Source: a virus (Duplodnaviria; Heunggongvirae; Uroviricota; Caudoviricetes). From it: a stretch of 15,467 nucleotides of DNA. The stretch's first letter is position 1. Every line of letters begins with the position of its first letter. The notes under the pieces are model-generated. The model was not told the DNA's origin, made no database searches, and was given only the letters and a program-made list of their open reading frames with translations. This document shows, one piece after another, positions 515 to 15,467 of the stretch. A program made the translations under genes and the position numbers. The stretch lies in IMG/VR virus record IMGVR_UViG_2695420714_000022. One strand, written 5' to 3'.

Positions 515-763
515 ATGCGTGTTGAGATCTGTATCGCTAAAGAAAAAATCACTAAAATGCCAAACGGTGCTGTGGATGCGTTAAAGGAAGAATTAACCCG
601 ACGCATCAGTAAACGTTATGACGATGTAGAGGTGATCGTAAAAGCCACCAGCAACGATGGCCTTTCTGTTACGCGCACCGCCGATAAAGATTCAGCTAAA
701 ACTTTTGTTCAGGAGACTCTGAAAGATACCTGGAAGTCTGCTGACGAGTGGTTTTTTCACTAA
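515..763 (+). CDS. DinI-family DNA-damage-inducible protein (RecA modulator)
   Basis: 82 aa. MRVEICIAK...GAVDAL..ELTRRI...LSV...[15 protein letters not shown] is colinear with E. coli DinI as I remember it (MRIEV.IAK..GAIDAL..ELSRRI..LSV..QETWESADDWF). Strong AGGAGG RBS and a LexA box upstream. Confidence 0.85.
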
Positions 764-1079: not shown

Positions 1080-1625
1080 ATGAATATTAGTGAACTTAAA
1101 AAGTGTATACACTATGAAGTAATAGGTTGTAAACGCCCTTTCTCCTGGCGAAAAGCAATTGTTCGCGCAATAAAACACAGAAGATCACGTTATTTATTTT
1201 GGTGGCGCATAGCAAAATATCTTTTTGATAAAGGCGGATACCGGCGAAAGATTGCAGGAAAAATAGAACGCTTCATTCTTGACAAATACAATGTAACCGT
1301 TCCCTTAACTGTAAATATTGGTAAAGGGTTCGACATATCTTATCTCAATGGCGTTGTTATCGGTCACAAAGTTACAATAGGTGAAAATTGTTCAATTAAG
1401 CCTGGGGTAACTATTGGACTTCGCGGTGAATTTAATGATATGGATATTGTCATAGGAAATAATGTAACCATTGGCTGTAACGCCACCATCCTTGGTGGCA
1501 AAGTGCATATAGGGAATAATGTAAAAATAGGAGCTCATGCATTGGTACTGCATGACATTCCTGATGACTCCACATTCATTACCAAATTTCACTCTGAAAT
1601 TATTTATAATTCATCTCACACATAA
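1080..1625 (+). CDS. Hexapeptide-repeat (left-handed beta-helix) acyltransferase; polysaccharide O-acetyltransferase-like
   Basis: 181 aa. Basic N-terminal segment with a WW motif (RRSRYLFWWRIAKYLF), followed by tandem hexapeptide repeats (VVIGHKVTIGENCSIKPGVTIG ... IVIGNNVTIGCNATILGGKVHIGNNVKIGAHALV). Architecture resembles WcaF/NodL/maltose-type acetyltransferases. The gene is AT-rich by eye compared with the flanking phage genes and has no obvious SD. Confidence 0.75.
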   Translation: MNISELKKCIHYEVIGCKRPFSWRKAIVRAIKHRRSRYLFWWRIAKYLFDKGGYRRKIAGKIERFILDKYNVTVPLTVNIGKGFDISYLNGVVIGHKVTIGENCSIKPGVTIGLRGEFNDMDIVIGNNVTIGCNATILGGKVHIGNNVKIGAHALVLHDIPDDSTFITKFHSEIIYNSSHT

Positions 1626-1635
1626 TTCCGTTTAA

Positions 1636-2208
1636 TCACAGCTCAGGCCATACGATATCCGGGGCTGTATTTATATCAATCCGACTCACTAATACCCGGT
1701 ATTTTTTCCAGGAAGATAGCATCGAAACCTCCTCATCAGTTGCCATTTCAAAATTAACAGCATCCTGCAGAATTGTTATGTTATCAGTCGCTTCCTGGAT
1801 TAATCTTGTCTTTTTCTCTTCCGCCTCCCGGATCCGGAAGAGTTTTTCTGCTTCCGTATCCTTCACCCAGGCTGTGCCGTTCCACTTCTGAAACTCCCCT
1901 TCCGGCGATAACCAGGTAACATTTTCCGGTAACGGACCGAGTTCCGAAATAAATAACGCGTCGCCGGAAGCCACGTCATAGACGGTTTTTCCCCGATGGT
2001 CTTCAACGAGATGCCACGATGCCTCATCACTGTTGAAAACAGCCACGAAGCCAGCCGGAATATCTGGCGGTGCAATATCGGTACTGTTTGCTGGCAGACC
2101 TGTATGAGGCGGAATATATGCGTCACCTTCACCAATAAATTCATTAGTTCCGGCCAGCAGATTATAAATTTTTATGGTCCGTGGTTGTTCAGTCATTCTA
2201 AAATCCAT
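1636..2208 (-). CDS. tfa: Tail fibre assembly protein (Tfa chaperone)
   Basis: [48 protein letters not shown]... matches lambda Tfa from memory. ATG at 2208 is preceded by GAGGTG; the ORF track starts two codons earlier at a GTG (2214). Confidence 0.9.
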
Positions 2209-2216
2209 GTTCACCT

Positions 2217-3107
2217 CTACTTAATATCAGAGACAGAATATTGTTTATTGAGCGTATGGGTGGGAGCACCAATAACGATGCTACTTCCGTGGCTATGTGC
2301 GCCAGAGGTGAGATTGCCTACGGGATTTTCTGGATTAAACCGGTGTGTATGCGAATCAGGGCGAGAGCGATTATTAGTCAGCACGTCATCAGCCTGATGC
2401 ACATGGCTAATACAGAACTGCCCGGAACGTGAGCAATACGTCCGATAATCGCCGCATCCAATATATTTAGTATCCGCATAACGGCAAACAGAATTACCCG
2501 GACAGTATGCATATGTGCCAAATACTGCCGACTGGCGGGATTGTGCGTATTCCCAGTTAATTGATTCTGTTTTTTTATTAAAGTTATCCCATGCCTGCTT
2601 CATCTGCCGGGCAACACTTTCAAACGGCACCTGACCACATCCGGCTCCCATTGCAGGGAATACCACAGTTTTTATTTTCCTGTCTGTCGTTGCGTGTTTA
2701 TTGTGCTGAAAGATGGCAAGCAGAGCGGCCCAGGTTGCGTTATATACAGCGTCTGTTCCGTCAATTGTCAGCGGAACACGCATTGTTGGCGCATGTACCA
2801 GCCAGGGGTGATGATTATGCCCCGTTTCAATTACAAATGCAGAACCTACAGGCTGTTCGCCTAAATATTCACGAAGAATATGATTCTGAACGCGGGACTG
2901 TAACTGAGTACCGAAGAATGCGGTAATGGCGGCATCAACGCCGCCATCCATCAGGCCGAAACTATTTGCCGCACTTACCATGCAGTCAAATTCTCTGATT
3001 GTTTCAAATGGCTTTCCGACAATATTCACATTATCTGCGTTTGCAAATACCCGCTTAAATGCTTCCGCCATTTCTGTTACTGGTGCAGAAAGAATGAGCG
3101 TAATCAT
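2217..3107 (-). CDS. Macro-domain (ADP-ribose binding/hydrolase-like) protein with Cys/His-rich C-terminal tail, inserted between stf and tfa
   Basis: 296 aa. Start ATG overlaps the stf stop (ATGA) and is preceded by GAGG; stop TAG at 2217-2219 lies 9 bp upstream of the tfa ATG. The N-terminal ~200 aa carry the MacroD-type signature N-x6-GG-V-D ([17 protein letters not shown]) and a second Gly-rich loop ([14 protein letters not shown]). The C-terminal ~100 aa have five Cys and HxH motifs (SHTH, AHSH). Confidence 0.75.
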
Positions 3108-6079
3108 GCAAGCCTCACAATATAGTTAAATGCGATGTTTTTGACGGTGTTTTCCGCGTTACCAGCAGCGTTAACGGTGATGGTGTGTCCATGTGAACCA
3201 ATCGCAACAGAGTGCGTATGAGCGCCAATACCAACTGTATGTGCATGCGCCCCTGCACTTGCAGCAGTGCCTGATACTGAGTGGGTGTGTGCACCAGAAG
3301 AAGGCACTGTTCCATTCCCCACGATCGTGCCACTTGATGAACCATCAAGCCAGTCGAAATTCATACCGCCACTGTTTGGTCTCCTTAATGGAACGGTATG
3401 AGTATGTGCGCCAGCACTATTTGCAGTACCAGATACATTGTGGGTATGTGCACCAGTGTTATTCGTGGATTTAGTGCCGTAATCAAAAGATGATGTGGTT
3501 TTCGTCCCCAAATCCGTACTGGATGCGCTGGCGCTGTGGGTGTGCGATTTAATGCCGTCCTGTTCCTGAGACAATACGGCCCGGCCACTGGCGGGTTTGC
3601 CCTTGATTGTCCAGCCGCGCATATCTGGAATAACACCTGAAGGATAGGCAATAGCCAGTTTCGGATATGCTGCCTTATCAAACGTCTGCCCCTGCATGAT
3701 TGCATAACCTGCAGGTGGTGTATCTGATGGCCACGGCAGCGGAACACCTGGCGGAAACGCTTCAATATTTGCCGAGCCGTCAAATTTTACGCCGTTAATT
3801 GTCCTTGCAGTTTGCAATTTGGTTGCTGTGCTTGCATTACCCGATAAAGATCCAGTGATACCACCACTCGCGTTTAATTTAGTTGCAATTGTAACATTGC
3901 CAGTATGGTTACTAATTATAAACGGCCTTAAGCTATTGTGCGTACCAAGACTGTTACCCGAATCTGTCAACATAAAATATGTGTTTGATCCATCATTTCG
4001 GATAAAGAATCCATAGTTGCCATAGGCAATACGCAGACCATTTGCTGACCTTGAAATAACCTCACCAGCAGCAGTTAAACCACCTGAAAGAGTCCCTCCA
4101 GTTAATGCCAATGCCCCAATATTTGAAGGGGTCAATGTGATATTTGCACTACCATCAAATGACACACCGTTAATCGTTCTGGCTGCCTGAAGTTTCGTGG
4201 CGGTCGCAGCATTACCTGTAGTGTTTTGATTACCGGTAGCGTTGACTCCAGGCAAGTTGATATCTGCCGATCCATCAAATGCCACGCCCCCAATCTTACG
4301 TGCTGTCTTGATCTTGGTCGCAGTATCTGCGTTTCCGGTCAAATTACCAGTAACACTACCACCAACTTTTAGTCCATTACCGATGGACACCAACCCTGAT
4401 CTTAAGTTTATAGAGAATGGTCTTAATGAACCGATGTCTCCATTTTCCCCCTCCCCTTCATTAGTCGGAATAAGATGAAGATGATCTTCGGAACGCCTAA
4501 AAATAAGGCCAAAGGCTTGGTTGAATATTCGAAGAGCATTTATCGTGCTGATTTTTAACTGCCCTCCCATTGTGTCGCCAGTTTTTTGAACTGAACTATC
4601 TTTAACAGTTTTAACTGCCTTTGGCGTTGCCGCCAGCTTTTCACTGGTGCTGTTTGTTGCACTGCTGAGCTGTACTATCCCCTTTTTCGTCGTGCTCGCA
4701 TCCTCCAGCGCCACGGCGGATGCAATATCCTCTGCCCGTTTTGCTGCTGTCTCGGCGCGCGTTGCCGCGGATTCAGCAGCAACTTTGCTCTGAGATGCAG
4801 CCGTCGCACTGCCTGCTGCCTCTGATGCTTTCGTTGTTGCTGTCGTGGCACTACCTTTCGCTGCTGACGCTTGTCTGGTCGCCTCATCTTTTGAAGCAGA
4901 CGCAGATGATGCCGATGACGCCGCTGAACTGGCTGACGATGCGGCTGCCGCCTTAGAGGAAGCAGCATTGTCTGCTGAAGTCTTTGCATTTGTTTCAGAG
5001 GTTTTTGCTGCAGAAGCAGACCTCGCTGCTGCAGTGGCTTGCTCAGTGGCTTTGCCAGCCTTCGTTGTGGCTGTTGAAGCGGATGATGCGGCGCTTTCTG
5101 CCGATTTTCCGGCGGCGGTGGCACTGGCTGAGGCCTGCCCGGCACTTGTTGACGCGGCACTGGCAGATAATGCAGCCGCTGTTTTTGAACCTGCCGCAGC
5201 TGAGGCGCTCTGTCCCGCTGCTGTTTCAGAAGACTTAGCGTTCGTCTCGGACGTTTTTGCCGCCTTCGCGGAATTTCCTGCCGCCGTTGCCGAGGAAGCT
5301 GCACTACTGGCACTTGATGATGCATTCGTTTCTGAAGATTTCGCTGCCTCTTTTGAGGCCGCCGCACCCCGTGCCGAGGTGGCAGCTTCTGACGCCTTCG
5401 TGGTCGCTGTGGATGCAGAAGTGGCTGCCGATTTTTGTGATGCTGCGGCATTCGTTTCTGACGTTTTCGCGGCACTGGCGCTGGTAGCTGCCGCGCTTTT
5501 TGATGACTCTGCAGCAGCAGCACTTTTTGCTGCTTCACGGGCCTTTGTCGATGCCGTTCCTGCGCTGGAAGACGCTGACTGAGCCGACGACGCGGCCTGT
5601 CCGGCTGACGTGCTGGCGGCACGTGCTGAGGCTGCAGCATCGGTTGCATGAGTTGCCGCCTCGCTGGCTGATGCACTGGCATCGCTGGCTGATTTTTTCG
5701 CGGCTGCCGTATTCTGTGCAACCGCGGAGGCGTTACGTGACACCTCTTCCACCATCTGCTCAAAGCGGCGCAGTGCCTCCGGTCGGACATCATCCTCCGT
5801 CATGGCACCGAGAAAATCATTCAGCGTACCTGGTCTGGAACCTTCATAGACGGTAATGGTCCCGGCATGTGAAGGCGGAAAACCTTCAACCAGCAGGGTG
5901 ACGCTGTACTGGCCATGCTCAACATCCATGCTGTAACGTCCGGCTTCATCCGGATTTTCAGAGGCCACCGTGTTCACCACCACCGTGCTGCTGGTTCGTC
6001 TGGCCTTCAGCACAATGGTGCAGTTCTGTACTGGTTTTCCTGTGCCATCTTTAAGCACGCCAGAAATTTTTACTGTCAT
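3104..6079 (-). CDS. stf: Side tail fibre protein (Stf), mosaic
   Basis: 991 aa. N-terminus [22 protein letters not shown]... and C-terminus ...[40 protein letters not shown] match lambda Stf from memory. Contains a long Ala/Ser-rich low-complexity segment and a central module with three ~30-aa tail-fibre repeats. Confidence 0.9.
3779..4345 (-). repeat. Three in-frame coding repeats (~90 bp each) inside stf
   Basis: Protein repeats [29 protein letters not shown] / [29 protein letters not shown] / [29 protein letters not shown]; the corresponding DNA repeats are visible near 4255-4345, 4138-4216 and 3779-3850. Confidence 0.7.
4760..5720 (-). repeat. Ala/Ser/Thr-rich low-complexity coding region of stf (approximate bounds)
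   Basis: Roughly 320 aa dominated by A, S, T and K with recurring AAKTSETNA / SASSAASSA units. The GC-rich repetitive DNA generates long spurious ORFs in other frames on both strands. Confidence 0.8.
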
Positions 6080-6230: not shown

Positions 6231-6830
6231 TCAGAAACGGTATCCGATACCAACAATAAATGCATCCGTTCGCCAGTCGCCACTACCGGAACCTTCATAA
6301 GCAAGGTCAATGGCCACGGATTCTGTCGGGTTAAACTGCACGCCAGCCCCCCACGCCAGAGACGTGTTGCTGTGGCGACCGTCATCACTTCCGGTCAGCA
6401 CGTCGTGCGTTTTCCCCTTGTTGTCAGTTACGCGGAGATAATCCCCGGAGAAAGTCGACACACGGCTGTAAGCCATACCCGCCATCACATACGCGCTGAA
6501 CCATTCATTCACGCGCACAGACGGCCCCGCCATCACGCTGAACCAGCGGTTACGCACGGAATCTTCATGCCAGCGGGTATCGCTGTAGTGCGTTTTTTGC
6601 TCATCCTCAGCATTGGCATAACTGAAGGACGTAATCAGCCCCAGCGCGTCCGTAAACTCATAACGGTATTTCACGTTAATCCCGTTCAGATTATCGCTGC
6701 CGGGAGCGTTCGTACGGGCATGAAGATACCCCGCGCTCAGTGTGGACTGATATTCAGACGCCCATGCAGGCGCACCGGATACGGACAGACAGATGGCTGC
6801 GGACAAAATGGCTGCACAAACTTTACGCAT
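6231..6830 (-). CDS. lom: Ail/Lom-family outer membrane beta-barrel protein
   Basis: 199 aa. Signal peptide MRKVCAAILSAAICLSVSGAPAWA and C-terminal ...GIGYRF; near-identical to lambda Lom from memory. GAGG RBS 7 nt upstream. Confidence 0.9.
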   Translation of the reverse strand: MRKVCAAILSAAICLSVSGAPAWASEYQSTLSAGYLHARTNAPGSDNLNGINVKYRYEFTDALGLITSFSYANAEDEQKTHYSDTRWHEDSVRNRWFSVMAGPSVRVNEWFSAYVMAGMAYSRVSTFSGDYLRVTDNKGKTHDVLTGSDDGRHSNTSLAWGAGVQFNPTESVAIDLAYEGSGSGDWRTDAFIVGIGYRF

Positions 6831-6897: not shown

Positions 6898-9800
6898 TCA
6901 GCTGATACTGATGCCTGCGGTGGCTTTCTTCATCACCACAACCAGCAAATCGCTGATACATGCTGTGGGATACCAGTTATTCACCAGCCATGCTGACACC
7001 GAAAACTCCAGCGTCATGTGACCGTGACCGGCAGGCATATCAATAACACCACTGTAAATCAGCGTATTATCCAGCGCGGTACGGTTATAAATTTCAGCAC
7101 CGTTTTTCCGCACTATCAGACGGCATGAGGAGTAAATATCAGTATGCTCTTTCTCATGTTTAGCGCCGCTGAATGCCACCGCCGGAATAACAATCTGCCG
7201 GTCAAACGGCTGATCGTCATAAACCCTGACGGTAATGGTCCCTGATGGCCACCGCTCCGGTGCACGGGAGTCCCGGGGGAAAGCTTTGCCCACTGTTTTA
7301 ACGAGATCGCCTTCAATCTGGTTGGCGGACAATTTTCCCAGAACCCGACAGTTCTCGTTAATCGTGACGTTGTTGAGCGTCCCGGAGTTCGCATTCACGT
7401 TACCGCTGATATCGGCATTTTTCGCCGTCAGCCGCCCGTCCGGTGTCAGGGAAAATGCCGGAGGATTACCGCCGCTGGTAATGGTCGGAGCTGTCAGGCG
7501 TTTCAGGAACACGTCGTTCATGAATATCTGATCGCCCTGACCAACAAACATCGGCTTTGTGTTGCCATTCGCAGGATTAATCATCGCAATCCGGTCAGCA
7601 GCCAGAAGCACCTGACTCTGCATACCTGCTGGCGTATTCCCAATACCGGCTCCGATACCCGCAATATAAAGGCGTCCGTCCTTCATCTGCTGCAGTTTCA
7701 CGGCCCACATGCTGTTCAGGTTATTATTTGTATCAACCTGAACTTTCTGTATCTGCTGGATTGCCGCACTCTGGTCTTCCAGTTTTTTATTGACGGTCTG
7801 CGTGATTTCATTGCTGACATTCGTAATGGACGTCCTGATTTCAGCCAGGTCCGGCGCAAGCTGACCGTTATCAATCTGCGTCCACAACTCCTGGGCCAGA
7901 TGTGTTTTCCCGATTTCTCCTTTGAAAAAATCCAGGTAACCTTCCGCATCATCGCTCGCCCGACCGACAGCCTCCACGAATGCCGATTTGCCAACGGTGT
8001 TCACACTGCGAACGTAAAAATAATAATCATGGCCCGGTTTGATATTGATACTGGCGGCTATCCAGTACAGCGCCGTACCAAGATAGCGGGCTGTGGTTTC
8101 AACCTGCCTGATATCGGTAATCCGCTTTTCCGAGAACCAGAACTCAAACTGTACCGTCGGGTCATAAACAGCAAGATGCGGCGTGGCGGTTATCTGAAAA
8201 TAGCCCGGCGTCAGCTCAATCCTCGACGGTGCTGCCGGTGCGGCAATCCGGAACGATACCGACGCCGGATCGCCCTGCTGCCCCCGGGCATTTACCGCCC
8301 GGACTGTCAGCCTGTAGTTCCCCAGCGCCAGTTGCGTGAAGCGGTATGTGGTTTCCGTCGTCCGGGCCGTGCTGACCAGTCGCTCACTGCCGTCGTCCGC
8401 TGTTACGGTCAGACGGAGCAGGAAGCTCACGCCCTTCACCACCTTCGGTGTGTCCCATCGCGCCAGCACCTGATATTCCCCGCTGTCTGCAGTGACTTCG
8501 GCGGTCAGGTGCTGCACTGCTGGCGGCGTGACACCATTCACCGTGCCGCTCTGGTCACCGTCAAAGTGCGCCCCGTTATCCACGATGGCTTCTTTCTCCG
8601 GTACATGCTGCACGGCGGTGATGGCATACGTGCCGTCATCGTTCTCACGGATACTCACGCAGCGGAACAGGCGCTGGCGCAGCGTCGGCAGCTTCAGCCC
8701 CCACACGCTGTATTCTGCAACGCCGTCAGGAACACGGCTCACTTTCACCTTCACGCCGTCGGTGACGGACTGGACCTCCACGCTGACCGGATTACCCTGA
8801 CCGTCAACCAGGCTTATCAGCGTGGTACCGGAGGATGGCAGCGTGATTTCACGGTCGAGCGTCAGCGTCCGGGTCTGGCTGTTCACCGCCAGCACGCGCC
8901 CGCCGGTGCTGATACCCGCATAGTCATCATCGCAGATTTCAATGACATCCCCCGGTACATGGCGAAGCCCTTCCGCACCCACGCTGAAGTCCACGGTCTG
9001 CGTTTCCAGCAGTTCCGTTTTAATCAGCCACAGCCCGGCGCGGTGCGCCTGCCCCCGGCTGGTACAGCCAAAGGCATCCATCTTCGTGACGTTACGACCG
9101 TAACGGGCAATGGCCTGCGTATCTTCAACAAGCTCTGTCGCCGTCTCCCAGCCGTTATCCGGGTCAATCCAGTTCACCTCAACGGCATTATGACGGTCCT
9201 TCAGGGCACTGAAGCTGTAGCGGAACGGCGCGCCATCATCCGGCATCACCACATTACTGCGGTTATAGGTCCACACCTTATCCGACGGTCGGTCCTGCAC
9301 GAACGTCAGCGTCTGCCCGTTCCATACCGGCATACAGCGCATCGCCGAGCAGAAATCACTGAGAACATCCCACGCCTTGCGCTGTGTGGTCAGGTAGGCA
9401 TTACAGGTGATGCGCGGCTCCGTGCCACCAAAGCCATCCGGCACCGACTGGTCGCAATTCTGGCCGATGACATACAGCGCCCATTTGTCCACATCCGCCG
9501 CACCGAGACGCTTCCCCATGCCGTAGCGCGGATGGGTCAGCATATCCCACAGACACCAGGCCATGTTGTTGCTGTATGCTGGCTTAAACGTTCCGTCCCA
9601 GATACCGCTGTATTGCCGCGTCTGCGGGTTATAGTTCGACGGCACCTGCAGAATGCGCCCGCGAAGATGATAATTACGGCTCACCTGCTGGCTGCCGAAC
9701 TGTTCCGAGTCCACCTGCACGCCGACCAGTGCCGTGTTCGGGTAGCCCTGTTTCACATCGATGATTTCGGTGTATGACGACCAGAGCGTTTTGTTCTGCA

Positions 9801-10377
9801 GCTGGTCTGTGGTGCTGTCCGGCGTCATTCTGCGCATCCGGATATTAAACGGGCGCGGCGGCAGGTTATCCACCACCACCGAGGCCAGATACTGCGAGGT
9901 GGTTTTGCCCTTAATGGTGATGTCTTTTTCCGTCACCCAGCCACCGTTACGCTGGATCTGAACCAGCAGGCGGACTTCCGACGGATTCCTGTCCCCCTTT
10001 GAGGTGGTTTCCACCAGTGCCTGCACACCGAAGGTAAAGCGCAGACGGTCGATGTTTGCCGACGTGATGGTCCGGGTGATCGGCGTGTCATATTTCACTT
10101 CCGTACCCAGCACCGTCTCGGAGCCGGAGGATTCAAATCCCTCCGGCGGTGTCTGCTCCTGCTCACCTGCCCGGAACACCACCGTGACACCGGATATATT
10201 GGTATTCCCCTCACTGTCCAGCACCGGCGTACTGTTCAGCAGCACGCTTTTTAATCCGTCCACCGGACCTTCAACCGGCCCTTCGCTGATGGCATCGATC
10301 ACACTCAGCAGCTGCGTGGACTTCAGGTTGTCCCTCGCTTCGCGCGGGGTATGCCCCTTACTGCTTCCTTTACCCAT
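6898..10377 (-). CDS. J: Tail tip / host specificity protein J (central tail fibre)
   Basis: 1159 aa, lambda J-like throughout, with C-terminus ...[45 protein letters not shown] resembling the LamB-binding end of lambda J from memory. GAGGA RBS immediately upstream. Confidence 0.95.
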
Positions 10378-10443: not shown

Positions 10444-10782
10444 TTATTTACATGCATTAACACTATCAGCAAAAATTTTTGGCGTTAATGCTGGTACACG
10501 TTCATAAAGAGTAAAACTACTGCCATTTCCTGCTTTTTTGATATCAAGCACAACATCATATCCCCCCATAGCCTGTGGAACTAAAAGGCTTACCCCATTC
10601 TCAATAGGAAGGGATGTTATAGGTGTTCCATTACCAGCCCATTGTCTGGATATGCAGCCTGACAATTCATCAATATTTTTTAATGAATTACCTTCCATTA
10701 CAGGTTTTCCGGATTTTACGTAATCCAAAGATTTACATCCTGTTAAGGCAATAATCGTGCAGAATAAAATCGTTTTGTTCAT
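10444..10782 (-). CDS. Small secreted lipoprotein; moron inserted between I and J
   Basis: The second Met of the ORF gives MNKTILFCTIIALTGC, a textbook signal peptide with lipobox L-T-G-C. Mature protein is about 95 aa with two more Cys. The ~480-bp I-J gap is AT-rich by eye, unlike the flanking tail genes; RBS is weak. Confidence 0.6.
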   Translation of the reverse strand: MNKTILFCTIIALTGCKSLDYVKSGKPVMEGNSLKNIDELSGCISRQWAGNGTPITSLPIENGVSLLVPQAMGGYDVVLDIKKAGNGSSFTLYERVPALTPKIFADSVNACK

Positions 10783-10855
10783 ATAGCTAACCAATAGAAT
10801 AATTATCAGTGTTCGATATAAATATTAAATTAGTTAGAACATGAGTAAAATAATA

Positions 10856-12841: not shown

Positions 12842-13170
12842 CAGTTCACCACCTGTTTAAACTCTGCGCTGAACCCAACACGCAACATACTGACCTGCGA
12901 CGACCATTTTGCGCAGGTCACCTTTATCTGCCTGTAACCATAAGGCGGCGTCCACAGAAAGGCCTTCCAGCCCCCGTGCTCAGCCAGAAACGACTCCAGC
13001 GCCGTGGCCTCCTCACGGGAGACAGACAGCGTCACGCTGTACGTTTTCAGGTCAGCGTTCAGCCCGGCAGGCGCACGCTGGGAATAGCCATCACCAAAGC
13101 GCACCTCCCTGACGGAAGGAGCCGATGTCACATCCATCCCGGGTTTCACTTTCCAGCGGAAGGTCTTCAT
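12841..13170 (-). CDS. M: Tail tip protein M
   Basis: 109 aa, same length as lambda M. MKTFRWKVKPGMDVTSAPSVREVRFGDGYSQRAPAGLN... Start ATG overlaps the H stop (ATGA). Confidence 0.9.
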   Translation of the reverse strand: MKTFRWKVKPGMDVTSAPSVREVRFGDGYSQRAPAGLNADLKTYSVTLSVSREEATALESFLAEHGGWKAFLWTPPYGYRQIKVTCAKWSSQVSMLRVGFSAEFKQVVN

Positions 13171-15467
13171 CGTCCACCTCCGGAGAACAGTCCACCATCA
13201 CGCATCTGTGTCTGAATTTCATCACGGGCACCCTTGCGGGCCATGTCATACACCGCCTTCAGAGCAGCCGGACCTATCTGCCCGTTCGTGCCGTCGTTGT
13301 TAATCACCACATGGTTATTCTGCTCAAACGTCCCGGACGCCTGCGACCGGCTGTCAGCCAGACTGCCCGGTGTACCGACATAACCACCGGTGGCATAGCC
13401 GCGCATCAGCCGGTAGAGATTCCCCACGCCAATCCGGCTGGTTGCCTCCTTTGTGAAGACAAATTCACCACGGTGAACAATCCCCGCTGGCTCATATTTG
13501 CCGCCGGTTCCCGTAAATCCTCCGGTTGCAAAATGGAATTTCGCCGCAGCGGCCTGAATGGCTGTACCGCCTGACGCGGATGCGCCGCCACCAACAGCCC
13601 CGCCAATGGCGCTGCCGATACTCCCGACAATCCCCACCATTGCCTGCTTAAGCAGAATTTCTGTCATCATGGACAGCACGGAACGGGTGAATCCCCGCCA
13701 GTTCTGTTCGCTGCCGGTCAGCATCGCCGCCATATTCTGTGCAATACCGTCAAAGGTCTGCGTGGCCACACTTTTAACCTGCGAAAAACTGTCCGTCGCA
13801 CTTTCCGCCCACTCTCCCCAGCCGGACTTCATCCCGGCCATCCAGCTTCCACGAAGCTGCTCCTCCGCAGACCAGGTGTTCTTCAGTGCCGATGTGGCCT
13901 TCGCCAGCGCAGCCGGATTATCACCGTACACCTCACGAAGGCGCTGCTCTTCCGACTCCCGCTGCGCCTGACGGTCGGTGAGGCCGCGGGCTTTTGCGCT
14001 GATTGCCGCCTGCTTCGCGCTTTGCTGCTGTTCAAACCGCGCCGCCTGCTGTGCCAGCTCATTCAGCCGCTTCTGGTGTTCAATCTTGTCTCCCAGCTCA
14101 GCCAGCTGGCGTTTGTACTCCAGCGTCTCTTTCTCATGAGCCAGCAGGGATTTTTCCTGCTCAGATAACTGCCGTTTCGTGGCGGCCTCTTTCAGGACCA
14201 CATACTGACTTTCCGCTTCCCATAAATCCCGGCGCTGCTGGCTGATTTTCTCATTCACACCGCTGTGTTTTTCCAGCGTCCTGAGCTCGGTTTCAAGCGC
14301 CAGCAGGGCTGCATGCGCCCGGTCTTCCTGGCGCTCACCGGCAGACACCTTCACACCTGACGGCTTTTTCAGCGTCGATTCATAATCCTTTTTTGCCGAC
14401 GCCATCAGCGTGTTGTAATCCGCCTGCAGGATTTTTCCGTCTTTCAGGGCCTTATTCAGCTCTTTCTGACGGGCGGTATATTTATCCAGCGGCGTCTGCA
14501 GGCGCTCATACGCCTTCTGCGCCTCTCCGGTATACTTCAGCTGTGACGACTCACGCTCAGCCCTGTCCCTTGCCGCCAGTTCACCGGCTTTTTCCATATC
14601 CGACTGCAGCGTGGCCGCTGCCAGACCCAGACGGGCATTTTCCCGGTCATCCCATGCCCCCTGAAGGTTCGCACGAAAAGAGGAGGTCTTTCCCCGGCGC
14701 TGGCTCCGGCTCTGGTACCACTGCCATTTTTTATCCGCCTCATCAAATGCCTTCTGCGCACTGGCGAGCATATCCGCTGAGGATTCCGGACGACCGATAT
14801 CCAGAATGGCATCCCACATCGATTTGAATGCCTTCCCTGTTTTATCCGCCCAGGTCTCCAGTGTTCCCATGTTTTCTTTCAGGCGACGGGTCTGCTCATC
14901 AAAGCCTTTCGTGGCGATATCGTTCGCCGCCTGCAATGCCCCGGCCTCGTCTCCGGAACGCTGCAGCTGTGCAACATACGCAATCTGCTCTGCCGTCACG
15001 TTACGGAACTGGCGCGCCATCGCCATCAGTCCCGACGTCGGGTCAGTGGTCAGCTTCCCGAAGGCTTCAGCGACTTTATCCACCTCCACACCGGATGCAG
15101 ACGCAAAACGCGCGACACTCTGGTTGATGGCATCAAACTGTTCACCACCACGCACACCGGCATTCACCAGGGCTGCCAGTGACTCTCTCGCCTGGTTAAA
15201 CGTCAGCCCTGCTGCCTGCCCGGCTCTTGAGAGCGTCAGCATACGATCGGCAGTCAGTCCGGCCTGATTGCCGGAAAGGACCAGCGTTTTATTAAATTCT
15301 GAAAGCGTGGCGTCGCCCTGGTACCAGGCGTACGCCAGCGCACCTGTCGCCACCGCCAGCGAGGTGACCCCGACCATCGGCAGGGTGATCGCACCGGCAA
15401 GCCCCCTGAACATGGGGATCATCCCGCCGAAGGAGTCCTTCACCTGACCGCCCTGTTGCAGCAGGAT
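13167..15467 (-). CDS. H: Tail tape measure protein H, 5'-truncated by the window edge
   Basis: The frame is open to the last base of the window; the listed start at 15443 is an internal GTG. C-terminus ...NNDGTNGQIGPAALKAVYDMARKGARDEIQTQMRDGGLFSGGGR and the coiled-coil-rich middle are lambda H-like from memory. Confidence 0.9.
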   Translation of the reverse strand: MLLQQGGQVKDSFGGMIPMFRGLAGAITLPMVGVTSLAVATGALAYAWYQGDATLSEFNKTLVLSGNQAGLTADRMLTLSRAGQAAGLTFNQARESLAALVNAGVRGGEQFDAINQSVARFASASGVEVDKVAEAFGKLTTDPTSGLMAMARQFRNVTAEQIAYVAQLQRSGDEAGALQAANDIATKGFDEQTRRLKENMGTLETWADKTGKAFKSMWDAILDIGRPESSADMLASAQKAFDEADKKWQWYQSRSQRRGKTSSFRANLQGAWDDRENARLGLAAATLQSDMEKAGELAARDRAERESSQLKYTGEAQKAYERLQTPLDKYTARQKELNKALKDGKILQADYNTLMASAKKDYESTLKKPSGVKVSAGERQEDRAHAALLALETELRTLEKHSGVNEKISQQRRDLWEAESQYVVLKEAATKRQLSEQEKSLLAHEKETLEYKRQLAELGDKIEHQKRLNELAQQAARFEQQQSAKQAAISAKARGLTDRQAQRESEEQRLREVYGDNPAALAKATSALKNTWSAEEQLRGSWMAGMKSGWGEWAESATDSFSQVKSVATQTFDGIAQNMAAMLTGSEQNWRGFTRSVLSMMTEILLKQAMVGIVGSIGSAIGGAVGGGASASGGTAIQAAAAKFHFATGGFTGTGGKYEPAGIVHRGEFVFTKEATSRIGVGNLYRLMRGYATGGYVGTPGSLADSRSQASGTFEQNNHVVINNDGTNGQIGPAALKAVYDMARKGARDEIQTQMRDGGLFSGGGR

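Follow-up and report, generated by a model that had tools for sequence, protein, structure and literature searches.

What does a macro-domain gene do between the genes for a phage side tail fiber and its chaperone? The question is raised by a 15,467-nucleotide stretch of viral DNA (Duplodnaviria; Heunggongvirae; Uroviricota; Caudoviricetes; IMG/VR record IMGVR_UViG_2695420714_000022), hereafter called the window, which represents the part of a lambdoid prophage that encodes late tail functions and is read on the minus strand. An open reading frame (ORF) of 296 codons plus a stop (2217–3107, minus strand) lies here between stf, the gene for the side tail fiber (991 aa, 3104–6079, minus strand), and tfa, the gene for the tail fiber assembly chaperone (1636–2208, minus strand). 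The original prediction, made from the DNA letters, described this ORF as a MacroD-type enzyme co-expressed with the fiber genes. Its position, its overlap with stf, and its macro fold were borne out by our analysis. From sequence comparisons, we place the protein in a different macro clade, find a C-terminal region of ∼100 residues that the prediction had missed, and conclude that the gene is an accessory insertion at the stf/tfa junction. We propose, with some reserve, that its product is a counter-defense enzyme.

The ORF is closely joined to stf and tfa

At the upstream junction, which reads GTG AGG CTT GCA TGA, the TGA stop codon of stf overlaps the ATG of the macro-domain gene in an ATGA (3104–3107, minus strand), an arrangement that suggests translational coupling. 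This overlap sits where cassettes that lack the macro-domain gene have a TAATG that couples stf to tfa. At the downstream junction, the TAG stop codon (2217–2219) is followed by AGGTGAAC and then by the tfa ATG at 2208. The spacer is therefore 8 nt long, not 9 bp as first reported, and it contains a Shine-Dalgarno–like GAGGTG. The tfa product has 190 residues when read from this ATG (a longer ORF starts at a GTG at 2214); it matches Caudo_TAP (PF02413, E value 5.7e-38) and phrog_105, and the protein encoded by the macro-domain gene has no Caudo_TAP match. Stf matches the Pfam families phage_tail_N, Gp34_trimer, Collar, and Phage_fiber.

The translational coupling makes the predicted late co-expression with the fiber genes plausible; scans for a promoter or terminator belonging to the macro-domain gene itself gave signals at chance level. 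A fusion of Stf to the macro-domain protein by frameshifting was ruled out, because the frame of the macro-domain gene is closed by a stop codon 6 codons before its ATG. We also rejected a foreign base composition for the gene, as its GC content (0.44–0.50) is the same as that of its neighbors.

The N-terminal region is a macro domain of the Ymx7 clade

Residues 1–190 (2538–3107, minus strand) are confidently assigned by Pfam, AlphaFold2 (AF2), Foldseek, and profile searches against the PDB to a macro domain like that of Ymx7 (Appr-1''-pase-like). The Pfam Macro model (PF01661) scored 68.1 bits, far above its cutoff of 22 (E value 8.6e-19), with residues 44–169 matching model positions 1–118 of 118. 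When AF2 was run with a shallow alignment, the model was poor (predicted local distance difference test, pLDDT, of 50), so an alignment of 56 sequences was used; this gave a pLDDT of >95 across residues 1–190. The resulting model has the three-layer α/β/α macro fold, and Foldseek matched it to solved macro domains with a probability of 1.0. There were 207 matches in the PDB at E ≤ 0.001, and the best 50 of these 207 were all solved or redesigned macro domains. The top solved relative is yeast Ymx7/YMR087W (PDB code 1njr; hmmsearch E value 2.2e-16, Foldseek E value 1.9e-11), followed by TTHA0132 and macroH2A.

The residues that would contact ADP-ribose are present in this domain. They include the adenine-contacting Asp (D41), a first loop that runs from N48 through G55, G56, and V57 to D58 (N-x6-GGVD), and a second, glycine-rich loop (G154-A-G-C-G158). 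These three elements are retained in 51–53 of the 53 unique proteins in our set, and N48, G56, D58, and G158 are each at least 90% conserved across a family alignment whose members are 34–69% identical. By these alignments, the ADP-ribose–binding motifs are complete and invariant in this clade, and on this point the original prediction was supported. The domain probably binds, and probably also hydrolyzes, an ADP-ribose derivative.

The same comparisons assign the domain to the Ymx7 (ADP-ribose-1''-phosphatase) clade and to neither the MacroD nor the DarG type. The signature of the Ymx7 clade, NS[FY]G...GG.D, is present, and the segment of the window protein that aligns with 1njr is VSPGNSYGYLGGGFD. 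Ymx7 (PDB codes 1njr, 1txz, and 1ty8) shares this motif and the glycine-rich second loop at ∼20% identity, but it is a stand-alone cytoplasmic housekeeping enzyme that lacks the cysteine knuckle, the HxH tail, and the phage and fiber context of the window protein. MacroD-type proteins (Escherichia coli YmdB, human MacroD1/2, and Af1521) have the macro fold, the N-x6-GG-V-D motif, and the adenine-binding Asp in common with the window protein. In contrast to them, the window protein has GG rather than GGG, a threonine (Thr62, in GGVDAAIT) in place of the histidine of GGVDxxIH, and a second loop (GAGCG) without the aromatic residue of G[VI][YF]G. In addition, the NCBIfam YmdB/MacroD equivalogs all scored far below cutoff, the best reaching 51.9 bits where 246 are required. 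The motif on which the original prediction was based is thus real, but the MacroD-type assignment drawn from it was rejected.

A DarG-like assignment was rejected as well. The PADLOC DarG model matched the window protein only across residues 139–176 (38 residues, E value 0.0047), DarG (PDB code 5m3i) ranked 19th in the Foldseek search, and the Tk.4 type ranked 20th in BFVD. The phage macrodomains known as AdfM (PhiKZ gp104, PhiPA3 gp108, and T4 Tk.4) are anti-DarTG2 factors that remove ADP-ribose (PMC13309987; 10.1101/2025.11.20.689424). Like the window protein, they are phage-encoded macro domains; unlike it, they are DarG2-like (ALC1-type, with a catalytic Lys), early or nuclear-localized, and tail-less. 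The relative of the window protein in PhiPA3 is gp271, a different protein from gp108. Reversal of DarT-like modification, one of the functions suggested originally, is therefore not specifically indicated in the form known from AdfM.

An exhaustive HMMER search recovered 2369 clusters (at 50% identity) of the Ymx7-like macro clade. Most of these are stand-alone proteins of ∼200 aa from environmental bacteria, some eukaryotic members are fused to WD40, RRM, or rhodanese/dual-specificity phosphatase domains, and related folds are also found in giant viruses and jumbo phages.

The C-terminal 100 residues contain a cysteine-rich knuckle and a fiber-like tail

The last ∼100 residues of the protein are not part of the macro domain. 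They consist of a cysteine-rich knuckle (residues ∼196–241; 2385–2522, minus strand), with the pattern AYCP-x4-C ... C-x6-C-IS..HQ, and a variable fiber-like tail with HxH repeats (residues ∼242–296; 2220–2384, minus strand). Neither region had a match in Pfam or the PDB. The four cysteines of the knuckle do not vary in either of two alignments (A1 and A3) or among the 53 unique proteins, and the knuckle is invariant across Escherichia, Salmonella, Erwinia, Citrobacter, and Enterobacter. Its pLDDT is 67–78, and it is probably a zinc site. The tail, which AF2 predicts to be disordered when modeled as a monomer, contains the motifs SHTH and GAHSH and a degenerate APTHT; GAHTH occurs in relatives, and the number of HxH motifs per homolog varies from 1 to 3.

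To relate the tail to known fibers, we aligned tail profiles with those of the neighboring fiber tips. The hhalign comparison gave a probability of 80% (E value 1.5e-5) and a score of 36.7, compared with scores of 8–16 for controls made from reversed and 20 column-shuffled profiles, and it placed the HxH motifs of the tail opposite the last three such motifs of the adjacent fiber tips. Phage_fiber (PF03335) did not match the tail in Pfam searches even at E ≤ 10. Like the tips of T4 gp37 and lambda Stf, the tail has GAHxH-type motifs (1–3 of them), but it is short and divergent, does not have the C-terminal sequence with which the fiber ends, and is joined to an enzyme rather than to a fiber shaft. 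In T4 gp37, such motifs bind metal ions within a needle of three chains, and because of this precedent, it is a reasonable inference that the tail trimerizes, possibly in a Tfa-dependent manner.

The tail was seen only together with this macro domain and is confined to a narrow clade comprising the five genera named above. No other protein with the knuckle or tail was found, and a word-indexed search returned only truncated fragments. When one genome per species was scanned for the knuckle and tail, five loci were recovered, four with the macro domain and one a remnant. A separate ORF of 463 aa (P0020, on an 8.4-kb Logan contig) has a ParM/StbA-like N terminus fused in frame to residues ∼60–300 of the macro-domain protein; this chimera probably arose by recombination on, or misassembly of, a plasmid-prophage.

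The gene is conserved in position across unrelated temperate phages

The window protein matches phrog_2613 (E value 5.6e-142; residues 1–266 against profile positions 1–271 of 274) and falls in the orthologous group of STM2588.1n of Gifsy-1, the Salmonella Typhimurium LT2 prophage, which is annotated as a macro-domain protein between Stf and Tfa. The two proteins are ∼70% identical and have the same architecture and the same slot, and the differences are minor: The Salmonella forms are shorter (269–274 aa), differ in the number of HxH repeats, and overlap tfa. The gene is common in Salmonella, and among complete E. coli genomes, 128 of 5426 (2.4%) carry it, at 109 chromosomal and 22 plasmid places. 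The gene thus has precedents, whereas the original prediction knew of no described macro-domain gene in a fiber operon. A family search returned 1720 clusters at E ≤ 1e-5; the best 120 of these 1720 were all enterobacterial, and some of the 120 hold hundreds of members. The genes occur in lambdoid prophages (including that of the window), in an N15-like protelomerase plasmid-prophage, on a P1-like plasmid, and in the P2-like phages Chuche and SEN4/SEN5.

Synteny was analyzed at 86 loci, 84 of which contain intact copies. In all 84, the gene lies between the fiber gene and tfa, the fiber ends in ...NYIVRLA, the macro start overlaps the fiber stop codon (as ATGA, or as GTGA in five loci), and tfa either begins within ∼0–35 nt of the macro-domain gene or overlaps it.

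Other homologs are found elsewhere. The closest of those without the tail (P0124, 63% identity) is on another phage contig, upstream of terminase and among ParB-like and methyltransferase accessory genes, and a homolog in a Rhizobium phage is among small early genes. In Microcystis phage Mae-JY35 (PP438426.1), a tail-less phrog_2613 member of 185 aa (3935–4492) is located in the structural module, where its start overlaps a virion structural gene by 4 nt and a "DNA ejection protein" is encoded two genes further on. Here, the macro clade is independently embedded among virion genes. The "tail protein" labels of jumbo-phage homologs (phrog_14717) look like propagated annotation, and members of phrog_2613 in Salmonella and E. 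coli are annotated "macro domain-containing protein" or "phage tail protein."

We found no paper on this gene and no published function for it in the literature; the family has no known structural role, and its binding motifs are invariant rather than mutated, so the original prediction stands in this respect. Databases and a model prophage already contain the gene family, but we did not find the combination of macro domain, knuckle, and HxH tail at a fiber/chaperone junction described. In one locus (E. coli Z1323PEC0011, NZ_CP148277.1), a 100%-identical macro ORF is intact inside a degraded prophage in which stf is frameshifted, lom is truncated, and tail genes are missing.

The gene is an accessory insertion under purifying selection

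Related stf 3' ends and tfa genes are found without the macro-domain gene in about 3900–4400 E. coli genomes, including those of the K-12 pairs stfQ/tfaQ and stfR/tfaR. A P2-like prophage (L087) provides the closest comparison, as its fiber tip is 94% identical to that of the window at the protein level, its Tfa is 85% identical, and it has the same acetyltransferase gene, yet it has no macro-domain gene. In this cassette, stf is coupled directly to tfa (GCATAATGG), and the window counterpart is GCATGATTACG... Read from these sequences, the difference between the two is a clean indel of ∼0.9 kb. The absence of the gene from this cassette and from the lambda-type stfQ/tfaQ pair agrees with the original statement that lambda has nothing in this slot.

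The gene is also not tied to one tip sequence. Macro-domain proteins 100% identical to that of the window adjoin tips that are only 67–75% identical and Tfa proteins that are 84–86% identical; from this pairing of identical proteins with divergent tips, we conclude that recombination separates the macro-domain gene from the variable tip, and the two showed no sign of co-variation. In addition, there are fragments in SEN34 (L005, 5001–5177), just downstream of the fiber-chaperone-acyltransferase block, and in Salmonella enterica diarizonae (L096, 4001–4063), between the fiber end and tfa. Both consist of a degenerate knuckle region with neither a macro domain nor a start codon, and by sequence, they are remnants of lost macro-domain genes; the SEN34 match was for this reason rejected as an example of an independent knuckle or tail. 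These remnants indicate that the gene can be lost.

Where it is retained, the gene is by codon comparisons under purifying selection, with a ratio of nonsynonymous to synonymous substitution rates (dN/dS) of 0.10 in the macro domain, 0.16–0.18 in the knuckle, and 0.41 in the tail. Taken from this evidence, the gene is an accessory insertion at the stf/tfa junction that is dispensable for the fiber/chaperone pair.

A possible role in counter-defense

We propose, at what we judge to be slightly below an even chance, that the protein is a late-expressed intracellular counter-defense enzyme directed at ADP-ribose, with a tail that serves oligomerization and/or association with Tfa or the fiber tip. 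On this proposal, the gene would be a functional accessory late gene, carried among enterobacterial temperate phages within the recombination cassette of tail-fiber tip and chaperone. The protein would be made late, together with Stf and Tfa, and would act in the infected cell on ADP-ribose–based chemistry. Late structural proteins are known triggers of host defense, and the enzyme could blunt NAD+/ADP-ribose–dependent host defense while these proteins accumulate. The fiber-like tail would make the protein oligomeric and/or would use Tfa or bind the fiber tip/Tfa complex. An intracellular role is favored by the observation that members of the same clade are cytoplasmic in bacteria and eukaryotes, whether stand-alone or fused, and by the location of the tail-less homolog P0124 outside a fiber locus, among accessory genes.

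Published work provides some context for this proposal. In a survey by Iyer et al. (2022), phage Macro, NADAR, and Nudix genes were found in early regions or among morphogenesis genes, the macro domain occurred in only ∼1% of siphoviruses, and such proteins were argued to counter mainly soluble ADP-ribose derivatives (PMC9503650). In Pseudomonas phages, the side tail fiber and its chaperone set sensitivity to type II Thoeris, which uses histidine-ADP-ribose (His-ADPR; 10.64898/2026.06.04.730250).

Several points weigh against the counter-defense proposal. Because the window protein is not DarG-like, the proven mechanism of AdfM is not directly transferable to it. Cellular homologs have no conserved neighborhood and no defense-island context. 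Late expression is deduced from gene overlap; promoter and terminator scans were at chance level. A purely cytoplasmic enzyme would have no obvious need for a conserved fiber-like tail or for so exact a slot, and the strict linkage to stf and tfa could reflect hitch-hiking in a recombination cassette.

A more specific form of the proposal, which we consider improbable, would account for the slot. In it, the HxH tail would mimic the fiber tip, or the tip/Tfa complex, as a trigger seen by Toll/interleukin-1 receptor (TIR)- or NAD-based sensors, and it would thereby bring a macro domain that destroys ADP-ribose signals to the sensor as the trigger is made. With such a decoy, it would make sense that phages of four unrelated body plans all keep the gene fixed between stf and tfa.

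The fiber-like features of the protein could also mean that it is part of the virion, a possibility that we regard as unlikely. The HxH tail would then trimerize via Tfa into a mini-needle that decorates or caps the side fiber, and the macro domain would be extracellular, acting as an adhesin or as a receptor-modifying esterase or phosphatase on a surface glycan. The resemblance of the tail to the last HxH segment of the fiber tip, the invariant position between fiber and chaperone genes, and the translational coupling are all consistent with this, as are the absence of the tail from proteins with any other N-terminal domain, the location of a tail-less homolog outside a fiber locus, the position of the Microcystis phage homolog among virion structural and ejection genes, and the O-acetyltransferase gene of surface-polysaccharide type that is often just downstream. 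However, the adenine-contacting Asp does not vary, nor do the two phosphate loops, and the clade is otherwise cytoplasmic; no ADP-ribose–like ligand is known at the enterobacterial surface. Near-identical fiber/Tfa pairs work without the protein, identical macro-domain proteins are found with divergent tips and do not co-vary with them, the acetyltransferase is mostly found without the macro-domain gene (84 of 91 genomes), and the label "phage tail protein" has spread by annotation transfer and does not count as data. Delivery of the protein into the host as a virion effector, as suggested originally, is mechanistically unlikely for a siphovirus protein linked to the side fiber because side fibers stay outside the cell.

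Alternatively, the enzyme could be unrelated to fibers and serve the lysogen or the element, for example through antitoxin-like protection or phage exclusion; it would keep its slot only since phages swap the stf tip and tfa as one cassette, and its HxH tail would be left over from the insertion. The clean insertion at the junction, the conserved flanks (the last ∼25 aa of stf and the 5' end of tfa), which favor cassette exchange, the patchy presence of the gene in 2.4% of E. coli genomes, and its decay to remnants in SEN34 and S. diarizonae all fit this explanation. We nevertheless give it a rather low probability, as the knuckle (dN/dS of 0.17) and tail (0.41) are under purifying selection, the knuckle does not vary across five genera, the upstream region has no promoter signal above chance for expression in a lysogen, and the start codon is translationally coupled to a late gene. 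A protective role toward the fiber itself seems to us still less probable. Here, the tail would target the macro domain to nascent Stf/Tfa, from which it would remove ADP-ribose or a related adduct placed by ADP-ribosyltransferases of the host or of a competing phage. Mimicry of the fiber tip by the tail and junctions that imply co-translation with Stf and Tfa are consistent with such targeting, and macro domains do remove protein ADP-ribosylation (PMC9503650). Against it, no ADP-ribosylation of tail fibers is known, the clade is closest to the small-molecule phosphatase Ymx7 and not to protein de-MARylases (enzymes that remove mono-ADP-ribose), and the protein does not co-vary with the tip.

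The proposed counter-defense role matters because phage macro domains have only recently been shown to act in this way, in each case DarG-like AdfM proteins, and the window protein belongs to the different, Ymx7-like clade. The gene moves among lambdoid, N15-like, P1-like, and P2-like phages along with host-range determinants, so that if the proposal is true, host range and immune evasion would be exchanged as one module. As the gene is present in genetically tractable systems (Gifsy-1 of LT2, E. coli prophages, Chuche, and SEN4/SEN5), its function is directly testable, and such a study would, for the first time, set the bacterial and viral members of the Ymx7-type macro clade in a physiological context.

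Neighboring genes and other features of the window

Convergent with tfa, and with ∼10 nt between the two stop codons, is a gene (1080–1625, plus strand) for a hexapeptide-repeat O-acetyltransferase that is EpsC/WcaB-like, belongs to phrog_2154, and is annotated "serine acetyltransferase." Its GC content is low (0.34–0.39). The same lineage is present in 91 E. coli genomes, with many copies on P1-like plasmids, where they overlap the end of tfa, and it also follows the L087 cassette that lacks the macro-domain gene. In ∼13 macro loci from IMG/VR, this position is taken by a second acetyltransferase lineage with 38% identity to the first. By analogy to neuO beside the CUS-3 tailspike, the acetyltransferase gene looks like a lysogenic-conversion gene whose product acetylates surface polysaccharide.

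We also considered whether the macro-domain protein and this left-handed β-helix (LbH) acetyltransferase form a deacetylase/acetylase pair. When a block was counted if at least 80% of the macro-tfa-acetyltransferase query was found in one place, 7 of the 91 genomes with this acetyltransferase lineage had the contiguous block, and the other 84 had no macro-domain gene. Given these counts and the presence of the acetyltransferase without the macro-domain gene in L087, the case for such a pair is weak, and it was set aside.

The remaining late genes of the window are all on the minus strand. The gene for tape measure protein H (13167–15443) is followed by tail genes M, L, K, and I, by a small ORF between I and J (10444–10794, 116 aa), by J itself (6898–10377), and by lom (6231–6830). 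The small ORF matches phrog_914 (E value 8e-33) and has no Pfam domain; lambda is not known to have a gene at this position. Between lom and stf, there is a strong terminator-like hairpin (6127–6098, minus strand) with a 13-bp stem that includes 7 GC pairs, followed by a T-run. It raises the question of how transcription reaches stf, the macro-domain gene, and tfa, whether by late read-through under antitermination or from a promoter of their own.

Residues ∼110–480 of Stf (∼4500–5800, minus strand) form a long low-complexity stretch rich in Ala, Ser, and Thr. The DNA of this stretch has a GC content of 0.57–0.61 and an AT skew that reaches −0.42, and its length varies among homologs; the fiber ORFs in related loci are between ∼400 and ∼1200 aa long. 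Past the acetyltransferase gene, at the end of the prophage, is a dinI-like gene (515–763, plus strand) whose 82-aa product matches PF06183 with an E value of 1e-18.

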